A stretch of 64,000 nt of DNA, taken from NCBI GenBank assembly GCA_022530585.1, contig CP092821.1:262222-326221 (forward strand), written 5' to 3'. Source of the DNA: Candidatus Nealsonbacteria bacterium DGGOD1a. GTDB lineage: Bacteria; Patescibacteriota; Minisyncoccia; Minisyncoccales; UBA5738. The position numbers and the translations under genes were made by a program. Of this stretch, positions 15,451 to 61,880 are shown piece by piece (within the stretch, counting starts at the first letter, position 1; every line of letters begins with the position of its first letter). The notes beneath the pieces are model-generated. The model saw nothing but the letters and a program-made list of their open reading frames with translations, was not told the origin of the DNA and searched no databases.

Positions 15451-16713
15451 ATGGCGGATAATAAAAATAATTATGATGTGGCGGTGATCGGCGCCGGGCC
15501 GGCCGGAATGATGGCGGCGATCAGTGCCGCCGAAATCGGGGCAAGGGTGGTTTTGATCGAGAAAAACGAAACTCCGGGCAAAAAACTTTTGTTGACCGGC
15601 GGCGGGCGATGCAATTTGACCAACCTTGAGCTTGATTTGCGCAAACTGGTCGCCAATTATGGCGAAACCGGCGCGTTTTTGTTCCACGCGTTTTCCGAGT
15701 TCGGCCCAAAGGACAGTGTTGAGTTTTTTAATAAGTTGGGCGTGGAAACCATGGTTGAAAACAACCGGCGAGTTTTGACCGGAAGCGGCAAGGCTGACGA
15801 TGTTTTGGAAGCTTTGGTCGGCCGGTTAAAAAATCTGGGGGTGGAAATGATTTACGGCCGCAAGGTCGCGACTATCAACAAAAAAGATAATTCGATTTCT
15901 TCAATTATTATTGCCGGCGGCGAAACTATCGGCGCGAAAAATTATATTATTGCCACCGGCGGGAAATCATATCCGGGCACCGGTTCCACGGGGGACGGTT
16001 ATGACTGGGCGCACACCTTGGGCCATAAGATCATTAAATTGGCGCCGGCGCTGGTGCCGGTGAAGATCAAAGAACCGTGGGTAAAGGATTTGGCGGGAAT
16101 AAGCTTGAAACGCGCCGGTATAACCGTTTTCCGGAACCAAAAGAAAATAATTTCGGACGCGGGCGAGATTTTATTCACCCATTTCGGTTTGAGCGGCCCG
16201 GCGATTTTAAACATCAGCGCCGGAATCGGGGATTTGCCGGGAAAAAGCGAAGTAGTGATCTCTTTAAATCTTTTGCCCGCGTTAAACCGCGACGAATTGG
16301 AGAAAAACATTCTGGAAAATTTTCAAAACAATCCCAATAAAATTTTGAAAAATTGTTTGGCGGATTTTATTCCTTCGGGATTATCGCCGGCGATCGCGCA
16401 GATTGCCAACGCGAATCCCGCCAAGACGGTTAACGATGTCACCAAAGAGGAGCGGCGGCGGTTGGTTGAGGCGATGCGGGATTTGCGTCTGACGGTATCC
16501 GGATTGTTGGAAATCGAGACCGGAATGGTGACCGCCGGCGGGGTGGAGCCGGAAGGAATCGACGATAAAACAATGCGTTCCAAAACCATCAACAATTTGT
16601 TTTTCGCCGGCGAGATTATCAATGTCCATGGCGTAACCGGCGGTTTTAATCTTCAACAGTGCTGGTCAACCGGGCGCTTGGCGGGGGCGAGTGCAAGTGC
16701 GAATATTAAATAA
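15451..16713 (+). CDS. NAD(P)/FAD-dependent oxidoreductase (HI0933/BaiN-like)
   Basis: YDVAVIGAGPAGMMAA dinucleotide-binding motif, GGGRCNLTN, and C-terminal FAGEIINVHGVTGGFNLQ. The start was set to the ATG at 15451. Confidence 0.8.
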   Translation: MADNKNNYDVAVIGAGPAGMMAAISAAEIGARVVLIEKNETPGKKLLLTGGGRCNLTNLELDLRKLVANYGETGAFLFHAFSEFGPKDSVEFFNKLGVETMVENNRRVLTGSGKADDVLEALVGRLKNLGVEMIYGRKVATINKKDNSISSIIIAGGETIGAKNYIIATGGKSYPGTGSTGDGYDWAHTLGHKIIKLAPALVPVKIKEPWVKDLAGISLKRAGITVFRNQKKIISDAGEILFTHFGLSGPAILNISAGIGDLPGKSEVVISLNLLPALNRDELEKNILENFQNNPNKILKNCLADFIPSGLSPAIAQIANANPAKTVNDVTKEERRRLVEAMRDLRLTVSGLLEIETGMVTAGGVEPEGIDDKTMRSKTINNLFFAGEIINVHGVTGGFNLQQCWSTGRLAGASASANIK

Positions 16714-16727
16714 ATGTAGTCTAACCC

Positions 16728-16756
16728 TTGACAAAATATAATAATAGGTGTTTAAT
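16728..16756 (+). promoter_or_regulatory. Candidate sigma-70 promoter of the DGR target gene
   Basis: TTGACA (16728-16733), a 17-nt spacer, then TTTAAT (16751-16756). It is followed by a ~150-nt leader with the stem GGCCATAGCC..GGCTATGGCC. Confidence 0.4.
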
Positions 16757-16904
16757 GATTGCATTGTTCTTAATATAAACTTGCTATCGGCCATAGCCAA
16801 AAGTCCCTTGATAGAGATCGGGATTCCTGGCTATGGCCGCAATGGTTCATAGCTCTGCCTCGGATTAGAGGAAAAATGCCCGAGTCAGGGCAGGGGAGAA
16901 AAAA

Positions 16905-17525
16905 ATGAGTCAAGAATTCGCATCCGCCGGCCTTACCGCCGGCCAGTTGAACGCAATAGTGAAAATGCTTGGCGGCCACGACAAGGCTTTGGCCTTCCTT
17001 CGCGGCGAGATAACAGTTTCTGCCTCTCGAAATTGGCGGGAGGAGGGCGGCGTGATTTATTTCACCGTCACTTCTGATGGCACGACCGGGGCACAGTGGA
17101 TTGAACGCCTTGAGAGTAAAGAATTTCGTGTCGGAAGCTACGCCAAAAGCGTACTTCTTTCATCGGCTTTCAAACCGACCAGCGGCGTGACGACCGAGGT
17201 CGCCGTCCTTAAGGGAGAACGCTTTGAGGATGACGAGCGGATTACCAAGAATATCCGCGCCGAGGGCGATAAGCGCAAATTTGGGAAGCCGAATGCCGAG
17301 GTTGTGTGCCTGATTTGTGAGATGTTCACGGATGAGGAGATCGAGGCCATGGGGCTTTGGTGGATCGTGGTAATGCACGAGCCCATCAAAGATTCCGATG
17401 GCGATCCGAGCCTCCTTGGCGCGTACCGCTATGGCGATGGCGTCCGGCTGTACGCGTATTGGGACAAGCCCGGCTACCGGTGGGATCGCGGCGGCGGGTT
17501 CGCGCTCGCCGTTTCGCAAGTTTAG
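16905..17525 (+). CDS. DGR target (variable) protein
   Basis: 206-aa ORF whose last 43 codons form the VR. The C-terminus ...YAYWDKPGYRWDRGGGFALAVSQV resembles CLec-type DGR variable regions. The N-terminal ~160 aa carry no recognised domain. Confidence 0.85.
   Translation: MSQEFASAGLTAGQLNAIVKMLGGHDKALAFLRGEITVSASRNWREEGGVIYFTVTSDGTTGAQWIERLESKEFRVGSYAKSVLLSSAFKPTSGVTTEVAVLKGERFEDDERITKNIRAEGDKRKFGKPNAEVVCLICEMFTDEEIEAMGLWWIVVMHEPIKDSDGDPSLLGAYRYGDGVRLYAYWDKPGYRWDRGGGFALAVSQV
17391..17519 (+). other. DGR variable region (VR)
   Basis: 129 nt homologous to 17853-17981. There are 12 differences, all opposite TR adenines. Confidence 0.9.
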
Positions 17526-17852
17526 ATTTTGGGACTTATGGTCTTTGAACTTTGGTTTTTTGACCCTTAGTCCTTATCCCTTTTTCGATCTGTCGGAATT
17601 GGGATTTTTTAATAAAATAATGATATACTCAATTTTGGCAGTAGGTGAATGTGCGAGCGGTTAAGGCTTCTCGCCGCCGAACCCAGTATCCATGCGTCGG
17701 GAATATTCGCGGTTACGGCTGCGGATAGGGCGGCGCATGCAGAAACTTCAAAAAAGAAGATACTTGGCGCGAGATATTAAGGCATTGCGATGCCGGATTC
17801 GATTCAATCCCAAGAGTATTCAAGGGGTGGTGGCATAGGCGATATTTCGCGC

Positions 17853-17981
17853 AATTCCGATGGCGATCCAAACCTCCTTGGCGCGAACCGCAATGACGAT
17901 GGCGTCCGGCTGAACGCGTATTGGGACAAGCCCGGCAACCGGTGGAATCGCGACAACGGGTTCGCGCTCGCCGTTTCGCAA
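17853..17981 (+). other. DGR template region (TR)
   Basis: A non-coding copy of the VR rich in AAC/AAT codons (NSDGDPNLLGANRNDDGVRLNAYWDKPGNRWNRDNGF). 28 adenines by hand count, 12 of which differ in the VR. Confidence 0.9.
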
Positions 17982-17987
17982 CTCTCT

Positions 17988-18401
17988 TCATTTCTCCCCC
18001 GTTTTCACGGGAGAGTTTTGTTTTGATAGCTGTCCGTTCCAGCCGCCAAGCATCCTGCCGGCTTCGTCAAGCTTCACGGAAAGCGCGATGTATTTTTTGT
18101 TATCAAGCGATTTGGTTTCCCAGAGAATCATAAGAAGTACGCGAAGCGTATCCATTTTTTTGATTGCCAGTCGGACATATGGATGCTTTTCTTCTCGCGA
18201 AAGAAAACTGGCGGCCGCGATCGCTTCTATTACTTCAATAAACAATGTATCAATGCGCTGGCCCAGAGAGTAGCGATGTGTTTTGGGTAATTCCTGATAA
18301 AATTTGTACCATAAAAGATACGATTCTTTCACCTTGCCCAAAACCGGTAAAATTCGCGGTGGCGGTACTTCATGGATATGTCCAGAATTCAATATCAACA
18401 T
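17988..18401 (-). CDS. avd: Four-helix-bundle protein, DGR accessory variability determinant (Avd) type
   Basis: LPVLGKVKESYLLWYKFYQELPKTHRYSLGQRIDTLFIEVIEAI...LRVLLMILWETKSLDNKKYIALSVKLDEAGRMLGGW matches the PF05635-like family. The N-terminal ~80 codons of the track ORF were rejected. The start is at 18401 or 18413. Confidence 0.8.
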   Translation of the reverse strand: MLILNSGHIHEVPPPRILPVLGKVKESYLLWYKFYQELPKTHRYSLGQRIDTLFIEVIEAIAAASFLSREEKHPYVRLAIKKMDTLRVLLMILWETKSLDNKKYIALSVKLDEAGRMLGGWNGQLSKQNSPVKTGEK

Positions 18402-19385
18402 ACATATAATCATATCATTTCGCTCGAAAATTTGCTTGAAGCGTGGACGGAATTTGCAAAAGGAAAACGATCGCGCGCGGATGTTCAGGGTTTTGAGCGA
18501 AATCTCATGGCAAATATTATTTCGCTTCACCGCGCGCTTGCGGCGAAAACATACGCCCATTTTGTATATCGAATCTTTAAGATATCCGATCCGAAGCCGC
18601 GCGTTATTCACACGGCAAGCGTTCGGGATCGGCTGTTGCATCATGCGCTGTACCGGAAACTGGCGCCGTTTTTTGCTAAAACTTTTATTGCTGATTCAAA
18701 TTCCTGCCAGATGGGCAAGGGGACGCATCGAGCTCTTCGTAGGTTTAATAAATTTATCAATGTTGTTTCCAAAAATAACACCAAAACGGTTTGGGTGCTT
18801 AAATGCGATATAAGAAAATTTTTTGCAAGCATCGATCAGACAATCTTGTTAGGCATAATGGCGCAATATATTCCAGACAAGAATATCCTTTGGCTTGTTT
18901 CGGCCATTGTTGGAAGTTTTTATTCAAGCACCAAAGGCAAAGGTCTTCCTTTGGGTAATTTGACATCCCAACTTTTATCCAACATTTACATGAATGAATT
19001 TGACCAGTTTGCGAAGCACCGCCTCAAAGCGGAGTTTTATCTTCGTTATGCCGATGATTTTGCCGTTCTTTCGGGGAACCGAGCATATGTTGAAAACATT
19101 TTACCGTTGATGCGAGAATTTTTAGGGCAAAAATTGAAGTTATCTATGCATCCAGATAAGGTTTTTATACGGACCGTCTTTTCGGGTATTGATTTTCTCG
19201 GTTGGGTTCATTTTCCGGATCATCGGGTTTTAAGGACAACGACCAAAAAGAGAATGTTTGAAAATATCAGAATAAAAAATGGTAAATTTGAAACAATTCA
19301 GTCATATATCGGGCTTGTTGGTTATGGCAATGGTTGGAAATTGCGGCAAGAAATTGAAAACCAACCGTCCCAGCGCCGAAATTGA
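18372..19385 (+). CDS. DGR-type reverse transcriptase
   Basis: 337 aa. SLENLLEAWTEFAKGKR N-terminus, the DGR-specific LGNLTSQ motif, and a YADD box (LRYADDFAVL). Confidence 0.9.
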   Translation: MDMSRIQYQHTYNHIISLENLLEAWTEFAKGKRSRADVQGFERNLMANIISLHRALAAKTYAHFVYRIFKISDPKPRVIHTASVRDRLLHHALYRKLAPFFAKTFIADSNSCQMGKGTHRALRRFNKFINVVSKNNTKTVWVLKCDIRKFFASIDQTILLGIMAQYIPDKNILWLVSAIVGSFYSSTKGKGLPLGNLTSQLLSNIYMNEFDQFAKHRLKAEFYLRYADDFAVLSGNRAYVENILPLMREFLGQKLKLSMHPDKVFIRTVFSGIDFLGWVHFPDHRVLRTTTKKRMFENIRIKNGKFETIQSYIGLVGYGNGWKLRQEIENQPSQRRN

Positions 19386-19556
19386 AACCGCCCTTTTGGC
19401 CGTCCCGCTGCCAAAGTTGCCTTGCCTTTTGACAGCAGTCCCATTGTCCCTATACCCCCAATGGGACATGCCATAACTTCGGGCAACATCGGTAACGGGA
19501 CGGTCGGGAGCGGGATGATCAGTTTACAAAATTCGCAAAAGTTATAATATGACGAT

Positions 19557-20009
19557 ATGGAAAATTATTTAACGCCCGAGGGGCTGGAAAAGCTCAAGAA
19601 GGAATTGGATACTTTGGAAAATGTTACCCGGCGGGAGCTGGCGGAAAAATTGAATTACGCCATTTCATTCGGCGATCTCAAGGAGAATGCCGCCTATCAT
19701 CAAGCCAAAGAACAGCAGGGATTTTTGGAAGGCCGGATTTCGGAATTAAAATCAATCATTGGCGGCGCGCGCGTGGTTGACCATACGGATTCCGATCATA
19801 TCCAGATCGGATCCACCGTGGTTCTTGCTTGCGGCGCGGCGCGGGACGAATACCAAATTGTGGGGCCCGACGAAGCGGATATTTTTAGCGGTAAAATCTC
19901 TTATAAATCGCCCCTGGGCGATGCGATTTTCGGCAAGCGCGCCGGATGTAAAATTATTTTGGAAACGCCCAAGGGGAAAATGGAATACGAAATTTTGAAA
20001 ATAAAGTAA
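19557..20009 (+). CDS. greA: Transcription elongation factor GreA
   Basis: 150 aa. LTPEGLEKLKKELDTLENVTRRELAEKL coiled-coil N-terminus and the C-terminal SYKSPLGDAIFGKRAGC domain. Confidence 0.9.
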   Translation: MENYLTPEGLEKLKKELDTLENVTRRELAEKLNYAISFGDLKENAAYHQAKEQQGFLEGRISELKSIIGGARVVDHTDSDHIQIGSTVVLACGAARDEYQIVGPDEADIFSGKISYKSPLGDAIFGKRAGCKIILETPKGKMEYEILKIK

Positions 20010-59073: not shown

Positions 59074-59928
59074 TTAGATTTTGATTGGGTTTTGATTTAA
59101 ATCAACTTCTATGTTTTCACTAAAAAACAAAACCTCGTTTGCTTTTTTTACAGTGTGGGCAACATGCAAAAAAGAATATTCTATCGTTTTAAAATCGTGA
59201 TACAAATCTTTTATTTCTTTCGCCTCATCATAAGATACGATCCATTTTGAATTTTGAATTTTTTGTATTGCCTCGCTAACTTTTTTATGACTGTCTTGTT
59301 TGTAATGATTTAAGTATAAAGAAGGCCCTTTGAGATAGTACGGGGGATCGAAGTAAAATATAGTATTCTCATTATTGCTTTGCTCTTGTATTTGTTTTAT
59401 AAGTTCTAAGGCATCTAAATTAAACAATTCAATATCGGCCTTGCGTGACGCAATAAGTTCGATTTTTTCAATTAGATTTTTTTTATTAAACCGGCAATCT
59501 ATTTTATATTCTCCCTTTTGATTCTCTCCTCCTATCACGCCGCCGTCGATAATTCCTGAATGATTTGTACGATTAAGAAAAAATGTTGCGAAGCCTAAAT
59601 CAAATAAATCTGCTGTTTCGCTGTTTGAATTAATTTCTTTAAATTTTTTCCAGTTCTTAACGGTAATTTTTGTATTGCTAATTTTTCTGCAAAATTTTTC
59701 CGTATTGTTTAGAATTGAATACCAAAAAGCGTAAATACCGCGATCAAGGTCGTTAATCATTATTTTTTTTATATTTCCGTTTATTAGCAAATAAAGGGCG
59801 ACTGACGCGCCCCCCGCGTACGGCTCAACATAGTGACCCTTGATATTATTCTTCTCGCAAATTGAGGCAATAAACTTTGCCAATTTGCTTTTTCCGCCCG
59901 GATACCTTAATGGCGAATAAAATATCAT
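59074..59928 (-). CDS. DNA adenine methyltransferase (Dam/D12 class)
   Basis: 284 aa. SPLRYPGGKSKL, EPYAGGASV and FYFDPPYY (DPPY) motifs. Confidence 0.85.
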   Translation of the reverse strand: MIFYSPLRYPGGKSKLAKFIASICEKNNIKGHYVEPYAGGASVALYLLINGNIKKIMINDLDRGIYAFWYSILNNTEKFCRKISNTKITVKNWKKFKEINSNSETADLFDLGFATFFLNRTNHSGIIDGGVIGGENQKGEYKIDCRFNKKNLIEKIELIASRKADIELFNLDALELIKQIQEQSNNENTIFYFDPPYYLKGPSLYLNHYKQDSHKKVSEAIQKIQNSKWIVSYDEAKEIKDLYHDFKTIEYSFLHVAHTVKKANEVLFFSENIEVDLNQNPIKI

Positions 59929-61286
59929 ATTAGTTTTTTGGTATTTAGTGATGCAATTAAATCGTTCGGATCTTGCAACATAAACTCAATTAACGATATA
60001 AGGTTATCCGCCACAGTTCTCGCATCGTTTGGCCCTGCGCCAGTTTTATAATTGTGAATAATTTGATGAAGTTGGTCTAAATCAAATTGCTCAAAAGCTT
60101 TTTTACTGCCAGTATCATTTATTAGCTCGATAAATTTTATGCGTAAGGTTTTGAAATTCGTATATTTTCGTTGGACCCTGTTGTCGTAAAATGCGGACTT
60201 AAAATGATTGTAATCTTTTATTTTTTTTCCGTTATATTCCGTTTCGCTAACTGTATATTTCAAAACGCATTCAAAAACTACACGGGCAAGTGCTACTTTT
60301 GCATTGGAAAAAAGCGAATTATCTAGACTGTAACATTCATCGATTAAGTGTTTTAGTTTTGGAGCAACCACCTTTCTCTCAAAAACGGGGCGGGTCTTTG
60401 TTGACCCCTTTTTATATTGGAGATTTATTTTTTGTTGATTTAGGTTAGTTTTTTGGCTATTCGGTTTTATCGAAGTTGACGGAACAAAACCGTGTATATT
60501 TAACCTTTTAAGAAACTCTGCTTTTTCCCTATCGACATCTATGTGAGAGATGCTTGGATTGTTTTTTAAATAAGCTACCAAAGCATTAATATATTCAGAA
60601 AATTTATTTGCATCATTAACCACTATTTGATAATGCGGTTTATTTTTAAATTTATATCCGCATAGTTCACTAAAACTAAATAACCTTTCGAATATAATAG
60701 TTTTGCCACCCATGCCACCTTTTCCTCTCCGTAATAATATTTTCAAATCTTCTTTGGCAATTTTAACCGCCTCATAATAAAAACTGGCAAGTTTAATTAA
60801 TTGTCCGGGGTTAGAATCTATTTCTTTTATTGAATCGTCAGAAGATCCGGTATTGTGCATCTCAAATGCTTTCAAAGCTTTTGCGATGCGATCCCATTCC
60901 CGAAAAAGGCTATGAGTATGTTGTTCTTTAATCCTTCGGTCCAGTTCGTTTTGATCCGTATAAATCAGTACCGGCAACTTATCAATTTGTATTTTTTGCA
61001 AACTTAAACCGTATTTTCCGGGAAAATTCAGGGCCTTTGCCGCTGCACATCTTCGATTGCCATCTTTTACGATGAAATTCTCTCCCGAAGGCATAACCCA
61101 TAACGCCTCGTCTGGATAAAATTCTTTTCTGTCGGAAATATTTTGAGCAATTTCTTCAGCCGATTCTGTATAAAGCAAATATTCAATCAAATCTTCTTCT
61201 TTCTCGCTGCCATTATACAATTCGGCAAATCTGTCATTATCTGGGTCAAGTATCAGTTTGCTTATATCTTCGTATTCTATTGCCAT
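59925..61286 (-). CDS. ParB/Srx N-terminal-domain protein with uncharacterised C-terminal half
   Basis: Start set to the ATG at 61286 (alternative 61358). ISKLILDPDNDRF and FIVKDGNRRCAAAKAL are ParB-N motifs. It overlaps the Dam start as ATGA. The upstream 188 codons of the track ORF were rejected as coding. Confidence 0.65.
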   Translation of the reverse strand: MAIEYEDISKLILDPDNDRFAELYNGSEKEEDLIEYLLYTESAEEIAQNISDRKEFYPDEALWVMPSGENFIVKDGNRRCAAAKALNFPGKYGLSLQKIQIDKLPVLIYTDQNELDRRIKEQHTHSLFREWDRIAKALKAFEMHNTGSSDDSIKEIDSNPGQLIKLASFYYEAVKIAKEDLKILLRRGKGGMGGKTIIFERLFSFSELCGYKFKNKPHYQIVVNDANKFSEYINALVAYLKNNPSISHIDVDREKAEFLKRLNIHGFVPSTSIKPNSQKTNLNQQKINLQYKKGSTKTRPVFERKVVAPKLKHLIDECYSLDNSLFSNAKVALARVVFECVLKYTVSETEYNGKKIKDYNHFKSAFYDNRVQRKYTNFKTLRIKFIELINDTGSKKAFEQFDLDQLHQIIHNYKTGAGPNDARTVADNLISLIEFMLQDPNDLIASLNTKKLI

Positions 61287-61359
61287 AATCTTAAATTCAA
61301 TAATTCTTATGTTGAAGCTAGAATCCACTATTTCGTTGATTCTAACATTTTGTACCATT

Positions 61360-61737
61360 TTTTCAATTATTGTGAAATCGGCCTGTTTTTGCTTCAAAAT
61401 CAAACAATTCCGGTTTCCGCACACCCCCCCCACAAACAGCGCGCGGAGCGCCGCAAAATTTTGCCAACAAAAAAGCGGAATTACTCCCGCTCCTGCCTTT
61501 CGGCAGTTCGCTTCAGCTTCTGGGCTCCCCAACGAGCCATTAAAGCAAACTATTGTCGTTGCCCTCTGCCCAAATCTCATCCACCATGCCAAGGCCAGAG
61601 GTTTCAGGAAGTAGGTTATGCCCCCGACTAAGCTTCGGTCGCCCCTCCAACCTGCTGTTTTCCGGGGCTTCCCTCGCAAAGGGGTAGCCGAGCCCGAATT
61701 GGGCTTGGGCCAACGCATCTTAGCCGCAAGTGGGGGT
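61360..61737 (-). other. GC-rich, hairpin-dense non-coding leader (possible structured RNA)
   Basis: An abrupt GC-rich block sits between AT-rich coding DNA and the att-like repeat. Minus-strand hairpins include CTGCC-GAAA-GGCAG (61493-61506), CCTCTG..CAGAGG, GGCT.CCC..GGG.AGCC and GCGG-CGCT-CCGC. No frame gives a credible protein. Confidence 0.45.
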
Positions 61738-61785
61738 AAATTTGAGGAATCTGCCGCTAAAAGCACCGCGTCAAACAGTGTTTTT
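61738..61785 (+). repeat. att-like direct repeat DR3 (degenerate)
   Basis: AAATTTGAGGAATCTGCCGCTAAAAGCACCGCGTCAAACAGTGTTTTT aligns with the ATTTG(A/C)(G/A)G..CTAAAGGCACCG..GTGTTTTT part of DR1/DR2. Confidence 0.55.
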
Positions 61786-61849
61786 AGTTCAAGAACGAGT
61801 TTTTGACCGTCTGATTTGAAGCTCCGAAATACAAAACGAAAAATTAACA

Positions 61850-61880
61850 TTAAAAAATTTCAGAGGGTCTAACCCTCTGT
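61850..61880 (+). repeat. 31-bp perfect direct repeat, right copy
   Basis: TTAAAAAATTTCAGAGGGTCTAACCCTCTGT, identical to 58959-58989. Confidence 0.9.

Follow-up and report, generated by a model that had tools for sequence, protein, structure and literature searches.

The stretch of DNA analyzed here, referred to as the window, comprises 64,000 nucleotides of contig CP092821.1 of Candidatus Nealsonbacteria bacterium DGGOD1a (positions 262,222 to 326,221 of the forward strand), and it contains a complete diversity-generating retroelement (DGR) cassette in the order target gene with variable repeat (VR), template repeat (TR), avd in antisense, and reverse transcriptase (RT). Its target gene is an open reading frame (ORF) at 16905-17525 on the plus strand, coding for 206 amino acids with the VR at the C-terminus; a profile search of the protein gave no Pfam or NCBIfam match. 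The VR (17392-17519, plus strand) is a 128-nt direct repeat of the TR at the 3' end of this ORF, with 6 nt from its end to the stop, and the TR, also 128 nt, is located 334 nt downstream (17854-17981, plus strand). The two repeats are 91% identical, with mismatches at TR adenines in 11 of 11 cases. Their last 25 nt, CGGGTTCGCGCTCGCCGTTTCGCAA, are the same and the flanks diverge directly after. By its sequence, this 3' end resembles the GC-rich initiation of mutagenic homing elements (IMH/IMH*), whose function it would putatively have.

The RT gene (18378-19385, plus strand) encodes a protein of 335 residues with an RVT_1 Pfam match. In a search of the Protein Data Bank (PDB), the closest solved relative was bRT of the Bordetella phage (8ub7, E = 1.8e-39, residues 7-312), while group II intron RTs gave E = 7.8e-17 or worse. 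The sequence includes LGNLTSQ and YADD, the motif (I/L)GxxxSQ being a signature of DGR RTs. An alternative start exists at 18372, and the ATG at 18378 is codon 3 of that longer ORF; ATG is kept at this position in relatives, and the public gene call for an identical RT protein has 335 residues. The avd coding sequence (17988-18401, minus strand) spans 137 codons, and its stop (17988-17990) begins 7 nt past the TR end (17981). The ORF matches the Pfam family bAvd (PF22296) with 43.2 bits at a gathering cut-off of 40, and NCBIfam DivGenRetAVD with 65.5 bits, below the equivalog cut-off of 80. Since position 1 of the latter profile aligns with residue 18 of the product, residues 1-16 were taken as a clade-specific leader, followed by the four-helix Avd body from about residue 18.

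The closest genome match was a Patescibacteria metagenome-assembled genome (MAG) from UBA5738 (locus L001), with an RT protein 100% identical to that of the window. The VRs of both loci (17392-17519 in the window, 3021-3148 in L001) differ at 10 sites, all of them TR-adenine positions. Since the VRs differ at these sites despite the identical RT, the element was recently active, and the comparison is direct evidence of recent diversification by mutagenic retrohoming. Between the TRs of the two loci there are 2 differences, an A/G and a C/T, the latter mirrored in both VRs.

The arrangement of the cassette was compared in two sets of related loci. The first comprised 80 loci from GTDB genomes, 75 of them with enough upstream DNA, and the second, used for replication, 63 metagenome loci with enough upstream DNA from diverse relatives. 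An Avd homologue was found in antisense directly upstream of the RT in 75/75 loci of the first set, and an antisense avd next to the RT in 63/63 of the second. In addition, about 60 loci of the first set have the order VR, TR and avd stop, with adenine-specific mismatches. An arrangement that is found again in all these loci is well beyond what chance would give. This is the B3 architecture of Wu et al. 2018 (PMC5758913), defined as TR-(avd)-RT, in which avd is encoded on the reverse strand; it accounts for 90% of their Candidate Phyla Radiation (CPR) set. In the window, TR at 17854-17981 (plus), avd at 18401-17988 (minus) and RT at 18378-19385 (plus) are identical in order and orientation to the CPR/DPANN B3 DGRs, with no difference in layout. 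The host, Patescibacteria according to the UBA5738 MAG match, is also shared, as is a target without a recognizable domain, reported for most CPR targets. An earlier sequence-only reading of this DNA had placed an antisense avd between TR and RT with its start overlapping the RT start, and these features are present at the coordinates it gave. It had also called the layout atypical, which did not hold: B3 is the published norm, all surveyed relatives share the avd orientation, and the orientation is thus the common form in the clade of this RT, the finding that the reading itself had named as speaking against its claim. The element is an ordinary Patescibacteria (CPR) DGR of architecture B3 and its layout is not new; the features worth follow-up are a repeat at the avd/RT junction and the embedded, putatively leaderless avd start.

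The coding starts of avd and RT overlap head to head by 24 nt (18378-18401), as counted from both starts, or by 30 nt if the RT starts at 18372. The avd ATG at 18401 is the antisense of the RT His10 codon. This conserved histidine is encoded by CAT in 63/64 loci, compared with 39-85% in eleven other conserved histidine columns (63% overall, p = 9e-12), and the antisense frame over RT codons 3-10 is free of stops in 70/75 loci versus 72% of other 8-codon stretches (p = 7e-6). Exactly 7 nt upstream of the ATG, a predicted extended -10 promoter of avd, TGATATGAT, was located on the minus strand (18409-18417). The pattern TGnTAnnnT is found exactly 7 nt from the avd ATG in 54/63 loci; correspondingly, ATC is used for RT Ile codon 15 by 54/62 loci (background 28%, p = 5e-22), and 56/57 have NAT at RT codon 14 (background 65%, p = 1e-9). 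With an extended -10 at this distance from the AUG, a leaderless avd mRNA is predicted, its start site being deduced from the -10 position, and leaderless translation would account for the lack of a Shine-Dalgarno sequence and the strict AUG. Expression of avd would thus proceed from a promoter embedded in antisense in RT codons 13-16, beginning at the AUG at 18401. The sequence-only reading had offered 18401 or 18413 as the avd start. The first agrees with the CAT bias of RT codon 10, and the ATG at 18413 was discarded as it is not conserved and falls inside the predicted -10. The overlap it described appears real and conserved across the loci, although the RT start it used, 18372, is replaced by the conserved ATG at 18378.

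In about 92% of the 138 related loci (69/75 in the first set and 58/63 in the second), a simple-sequence repeat (SSR) separates the avd ATG from the Avd body. The first set contains 58 poly-C tracts (C7-C14, poly-G on the RT strand), seven tetranucleotide, two heptanucleotide and two dinucleotide repeats, with six decayed or absent; the corresponding figures for the second set are 54, three, zero, one and five. The repeat units have 1, 2, 4 or 7 nt, none a multiple of three (examples are L026:3982-3994, L006:3950-3991, L010:3917-3994 and L076:3951-3983), and the tract is upstream of the divergent RT start at a distance of 11-17 nt, in most cases 13. G/C runs of at least 8 nt occur 56 times at the junction and 4 times elsewhere in 580 kb; of the latter, one belongs to a truncated locus, at this same junction, and another is a run at a contig end. 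Two further G10 tracts outside the junction were observed at L023:3404 and L023:5253, one of them just downstream of the RT stop. The window has no perfect repeat tract, as opposed to its relatives, and keeps at this position a decayed remnant (18357-18365, minus strand), CCGCCACCG, which reads Pro-Pro-Pro (CGGTGGCGG on the plus strand). Since the remnant is non-repetitive and in frame, the 137-residue avd ORF is open.

The length of the junction tract differs among contigs with an identical RT protein in three families: G9 versus G11 (L088-91, P0050), (GT)n versus (GT)n-1 (L092-98, P0066) and G9 versus G10 (L191-193, P0046). The last family includes an ON/OFF pair, L192 and L193 with C9 giving a 130-residue Avd and L191 with C10 giving an ORF of 16 residues. 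Poly-G length can be imprecise in short-read assemblies, the di-, tetra- and heptanucleotide cases being unaffected. In the P0053 family, G9 was unchanged in 7 contigs, and no length change was seen in 21 contigs of four families with short or decayed tracts. The upstream ATG is in the Avd frame in only 11/94 repeat-bearing loci (p = 3e-6 versus 1/3), and the two OFF frames are equally common (24 versus 27). Decayed tracts are in frame in 9/10 loci, several of which are close relatives, and also in two P0048 contigs. In most relatives, the avd leader would cross a hypermutable repeat whose length sets the Avd frame; in the window, the repeat would have decayed to CCGCCACCG in the in-frame state, and Avd is predicted to be constitutively translatable.

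Other roles of the tract were considered and rejected. A conserved Shine-Dalgarno function of poly-G for the RT does not fit the relatives that have (TTGG)n, (GATT)n, (CGTT)n, (GT)n or others in its place, nor the distance of 11-17 nt from the ATG; a frame switch of the RT itself does not fit an ATG located downstream of the tract in most loci; and programmed frameshifting that rescues the OFF frames is unlikely with both OFF frames equally common. In loci where Avd is out of frame, public calls omit avd or give versions of 80-114 residues (L081-L087, L089-L091, L191 and L194-L200). Since gene callers miss or shorten avd in OFF-state loci, DGR surveys that depend on called Avd would be biased and undercount it. 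Contig breaks are frequent at the junction repeat and within the target gene/VR region (L083-L087 start about 1290 nt upstream of the RT, and the end of L098 falls in its GT repeat), which would be expected of populations heterogeneous at both sites. Apart from the junction, the only other G/C homopolymer of at least 7 nt in the window is a C8 on the plus strand (61424-61431), within a minus-strand ORF of 641 residues (59925-61850) that has no Pfam match; it may be another length-variable tract.

The TR appears to lie in a transcription unit of its own, as predicted from conserved sequence on both sides of it. Upstream, a predicted extended -10 promoter, TGATATACT (17621-17629, plus strand), was recognized by consensus match only; among relatives, 38/48 loci have a TAnnnT hexamer 6-7 nt before GGnAGTAGG, the conserved start of the leader, and 26 of them also have the TG. 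Next comes a structured 5' leader of about 218 nt (17637-17853, plus strand), which has conserved blocks in 61 loci and is the most conserved non-coding sequence of the cassette. RNAalifold on 23 leader sequences predicted 60 pairs, with a covariation term of -13.5 kcal/mol; compensatory changes occur at 38 of the pairs. The leader matched no Rfam 15 family; a scan of 16500-19600 at E <= 1 returned only a chance hit to EAV_LTH (21 bits versus a gathering threshold of 70). Directly after the TR, a linker, CTCTCTTCATTT (17982-17993, plus strand), is conserved in most loci and is complementary to an upstream leader motif, AAAA(T)GAAGA (17751-17761 in the window). The candidate duplex pairs AAAAAAGAAGA of the leader (17751-17761) with TCTTCATTT after the TR (17985-17993), and its mean energy is -6.6 kcal/mol, compared with -3.4 for shuffled sequence. 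It may be a counterpart of the cPRT-Stop duplex of Bordetella phage BPP-1. As a claim of long-range pairing it was not retained: the pairing is energetically plausible, but covariation is too weak, the observed value being reached in 6/200 permutations.

The unit is closed by a hairpin (17992-18015, plus strand) and a U-run, TTTTGTTTT (18016-18024), which together have the GC-rich stem and following U-run of an intrinsic terminator. Hairpin and TTTTGTTTT(G) are located about 13 nt after the TR in approximately 55/62 loci, with a conserved stem base CTC..GAG, a covarying upper stem and a variable loop. Rho-independent termination in the CPR host is thus predicted from these features. Handa et al. 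2024 predicted Avd-binding stem-loops just downstream of the TR in 207/278 Avd-containing DGRs, CPR included, and the window hairpin is probably an Avd-binding element of this type with a U-run added. Codon-level analysis of 58 avd genes showed a relative synonymous entropy of 0.84-0.89 along the Avd body (residues 1-100); the only drop, to 0.41, 0.26, 0.0 and 0.42, is at the K-Q-N-S codons of the C-terminus, which are antisense to the U-run and the hairpin 3' arm. Since synonymous constraint is confined to these codons, there is no conserved RNA element antisense to the avd body. According to this model, promoter-like site, leader, TR, 12-nt linker and hairpin with U-run would form a unit that ends within the last 37 nt of the convergent avd, so that the template RNA would be antisense only to the 3' tip of avd; it would act as a stand-alone non-coding RNA of about 390 nt, bound by RT-Avd in trans.

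Some further structures were observed around the target gene. Many relatives (e.g., L023, L028, L036 and L019) have a GC-rich hairpin with a T-run between the target gene and the TR-RNA promoter, resembling a terminator of the target gene, and at this position the window has an imperfect inverted repeat, GGACTTATGGTC / GACCCTTAGTCC (17553-17575). Upstream of the target gene, there is a 20-nt inverted repeat (16788-16839, 85% complementary, 12-nt loop), whose sole Rfam match was the below-threshold EAV_LTH chance hit (21 bits).

Overall, the cassette is probably best explained as a B3 DGR with a stand-alone TR RNA, a leaderless avd and a decayed in-frame repeat. Several points weigh against this explanation. 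The locus statistics treat loci as independent, with no phylogenetic correction. The regulatory features, both ends of the TR RNA among them, are predictions from comparative sequence, and the hairpin after the TR may be an Avd-binding element instead of, or besides, a terminator. In BPP-1, about 140 nt downstream of the TR are essential for complementary DNA (cDNA) synthesis and only 20 nt are needed upstream (Handa 2018), whereas in the window about 43 nt separate the TR end from the U-run; therefore, the functions of the downstream nucleotides of BPP-1 must be assumed to reside in the 5' leader, which probably carries these RT/Avd-recognition functions. A two-hexamer sigma-70 scan, a method that misses extended -10 sites, recognized no plus-strand RT promoter at 18025-18377, so read-through from the TR promoter could still occur. 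Regarding avd, public gene callers put the starts downstream, with products of 92-114 residues, the profile hidden Markov model of Avd starts only at residue 18 of the long ORF, and the frame of the upstream ATG leads into Avd in only about 12% of the relatives that bear a repeat.

Two alternatives draw on these points. One is that the TR is co-transcribed with the RT, the hairpin being only a protein-binding element or a leaky terminator, and that the resulting RNA is antisense to the whole avd mRNA (about 400 nt) and couples the template RNA level to Avd expression, as the sequence-only reading had first proposed. The conserved TTTTGTTTT run after the hairpin argues against it, as do a nucleotide-level constraint that stops exactly at the U-run, leaving the antisense of the avd body without synonymous constraint, and a large conserved structured domain that is located 5' of the TR. 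It is favored by the lack of a sigma-70-like plus-strand promoter between TR and RT in the window, by BPP-1, in which the TR is co-transcribed with brt and the RNA downstream of the TR is required (Handa 2018), and by the Avd-binding role given to the stem-loop just after the TR in other DGRs. On balance, co-transcription is considered unlikely, and the second option of the sequence-only reading, a short stand-alone TR RNA ended by the hairpin, is better supported by the conserved hairpin, the leader and the entropy profile.

The other alternative concerns the avd start. If avd began after the repeat position (e.g., TTG at 18341 or GTG at 18332), there would be no coding overlap with the RT, and the repeat would be in a shared divergent 5' untranslated region/promoter, tuning transcription, for instance through RT promoter spacing, instead of the Avd frame. 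Such a start would agree with the beginning of the Avd profile, with the shorter products of the gene callers and with the 83/94 repeat-bearing loci that are out of frame with the upstream ATG; moreover, in 18/51 loci the G tract is directly followed by TAnnnT at 7 nt from the RT ATG, which would place the tract in the RT promoter spacer. It leaves aside the CAT codon at RT position 10 in 63/64 loci, the open antisense frame in 70/75 and the TGnTAnnnT exactly 7 nt from the ATG with its synonymous-site bias. In many loci, ATG, GTG and TTG are all absent from the stretch that separates the tract from helix 1. The frame is intact where the tract has decayed in 9/10 survey loci and the two P0048 contigs, and units of 3 or 6 nt do not occur among the repeats, whose units have 1, 2, 4 or 7 nt. 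A downstream start is regarded as doubtful. Finally, that the minus-strand ORF is a chance ORF with no functional avd, as its antisense position within a DGR cassette and a phmmer search of the PDB with no significant match, solved Avd structures included, might suggest, is effectively refuted and retains hardly any likelihood, given a score above the Pfam bAvd gathering cut-off, homologues of 30-90% identity at the same position in all 138 loci and codon variation typical of purifying selection.

Compared with BPP-1 (mtd-avd-TR-brt, architecture B1), the window shares an RT closest to bRT among solved structures, an Avd-family accessory protein, adenine-specific mutagenesis and a stem-loop directly 3' of the TR, which in BPP-1 is the Avd-binding Sp 3-33 element. 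It differs in that avd is inverted and downstream of the TR, a large structured RNA domain (218 nt) lies 5' of the TR, about 43 nt precede the U-run instead of the roughly 140 essential Sp nucleotides 3' of the TR, and the TR is probably not co-transcribed with the RT, as it is with brt. Regarding the use of the TR RNA, an analogy is found in the retron msr-msd RNA, a structured non-coding RNA beside an RT that contains both template and RT-recognition structures. The retron RNA is normally co-transcribed upstream of the RT and yields multicopy single-stranded DNA (msDNA), whereas the cDNA here would be a mutagenized copy that replaces the VR, and no homology is claimed. A compact TR RNA of about 390 nt with its structured domain 5' of the TR suggests a permuted ribonucleoprotein architecture relative to BPP-1, which is relevant to the engineering of DGR-based mutagenesis tools.

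The junction repeat was also compared with known switches. SSR contingency loci are genes subject to phase variation by slipped-strand mispairing. As in the poly-G genes of Campylobacter and the repeats of Neisseria and Haemophilus (PMC3315296, PMC4965091), the non-triplet repeat of the relatives is just after the start codon, and its length differs, here between contigs with identical RT, switching the downstream frame. In contrast to those loci, the gene under control here codes for an accessory protein, that of a mutagenic retroelement, and the CPR lineage is uncultured; the tract is also 11-17 nt upstream of a divergent RT start, and the switching of expression is only predicted; in the window, moreover, the repeat has decayed. 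The literature searched, Paul et al. 2017 being outside it, gave no match for the junction repeat, the structured 5' leader, the overlap of the start codons or the avd promoter embedded in the RT, and no paper linking DGRs to repeat-based phase variation.

The simplest reading of the repeat would be slipped-strand phase variation of Avd, mostly OFF, which was lost in the ON state in the lineage of the window. In a wider form, which we favor by a modest degree, a phase-variation switch of the slipped-strand type would gate the expression of Avd and, through it, mutagenic retrohoming in a large clade of CPR DGRs (>7,900 RT homologues at E <= 1e-60): a leaderless avd would be translated from an AUG antisense in RT codon 10 through a repeat that sets the frame, most populations would be OFF (83/94 loci), rare ON variants would diversify the target, and lineages such as that of the window would be constitutively competent. 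Lying just upstream of the divergent RT start, the tract may have a second role in tuning RT transcription. If the proposal is true, a repeat-based stochastic ON/OFF switch on an essential accessory protein, directly testable in metagenome reads, would be a simple answer to how a retroelement that hypermutates the genes of its own host is kept in check in the most DGR-rich lineages on Earth.

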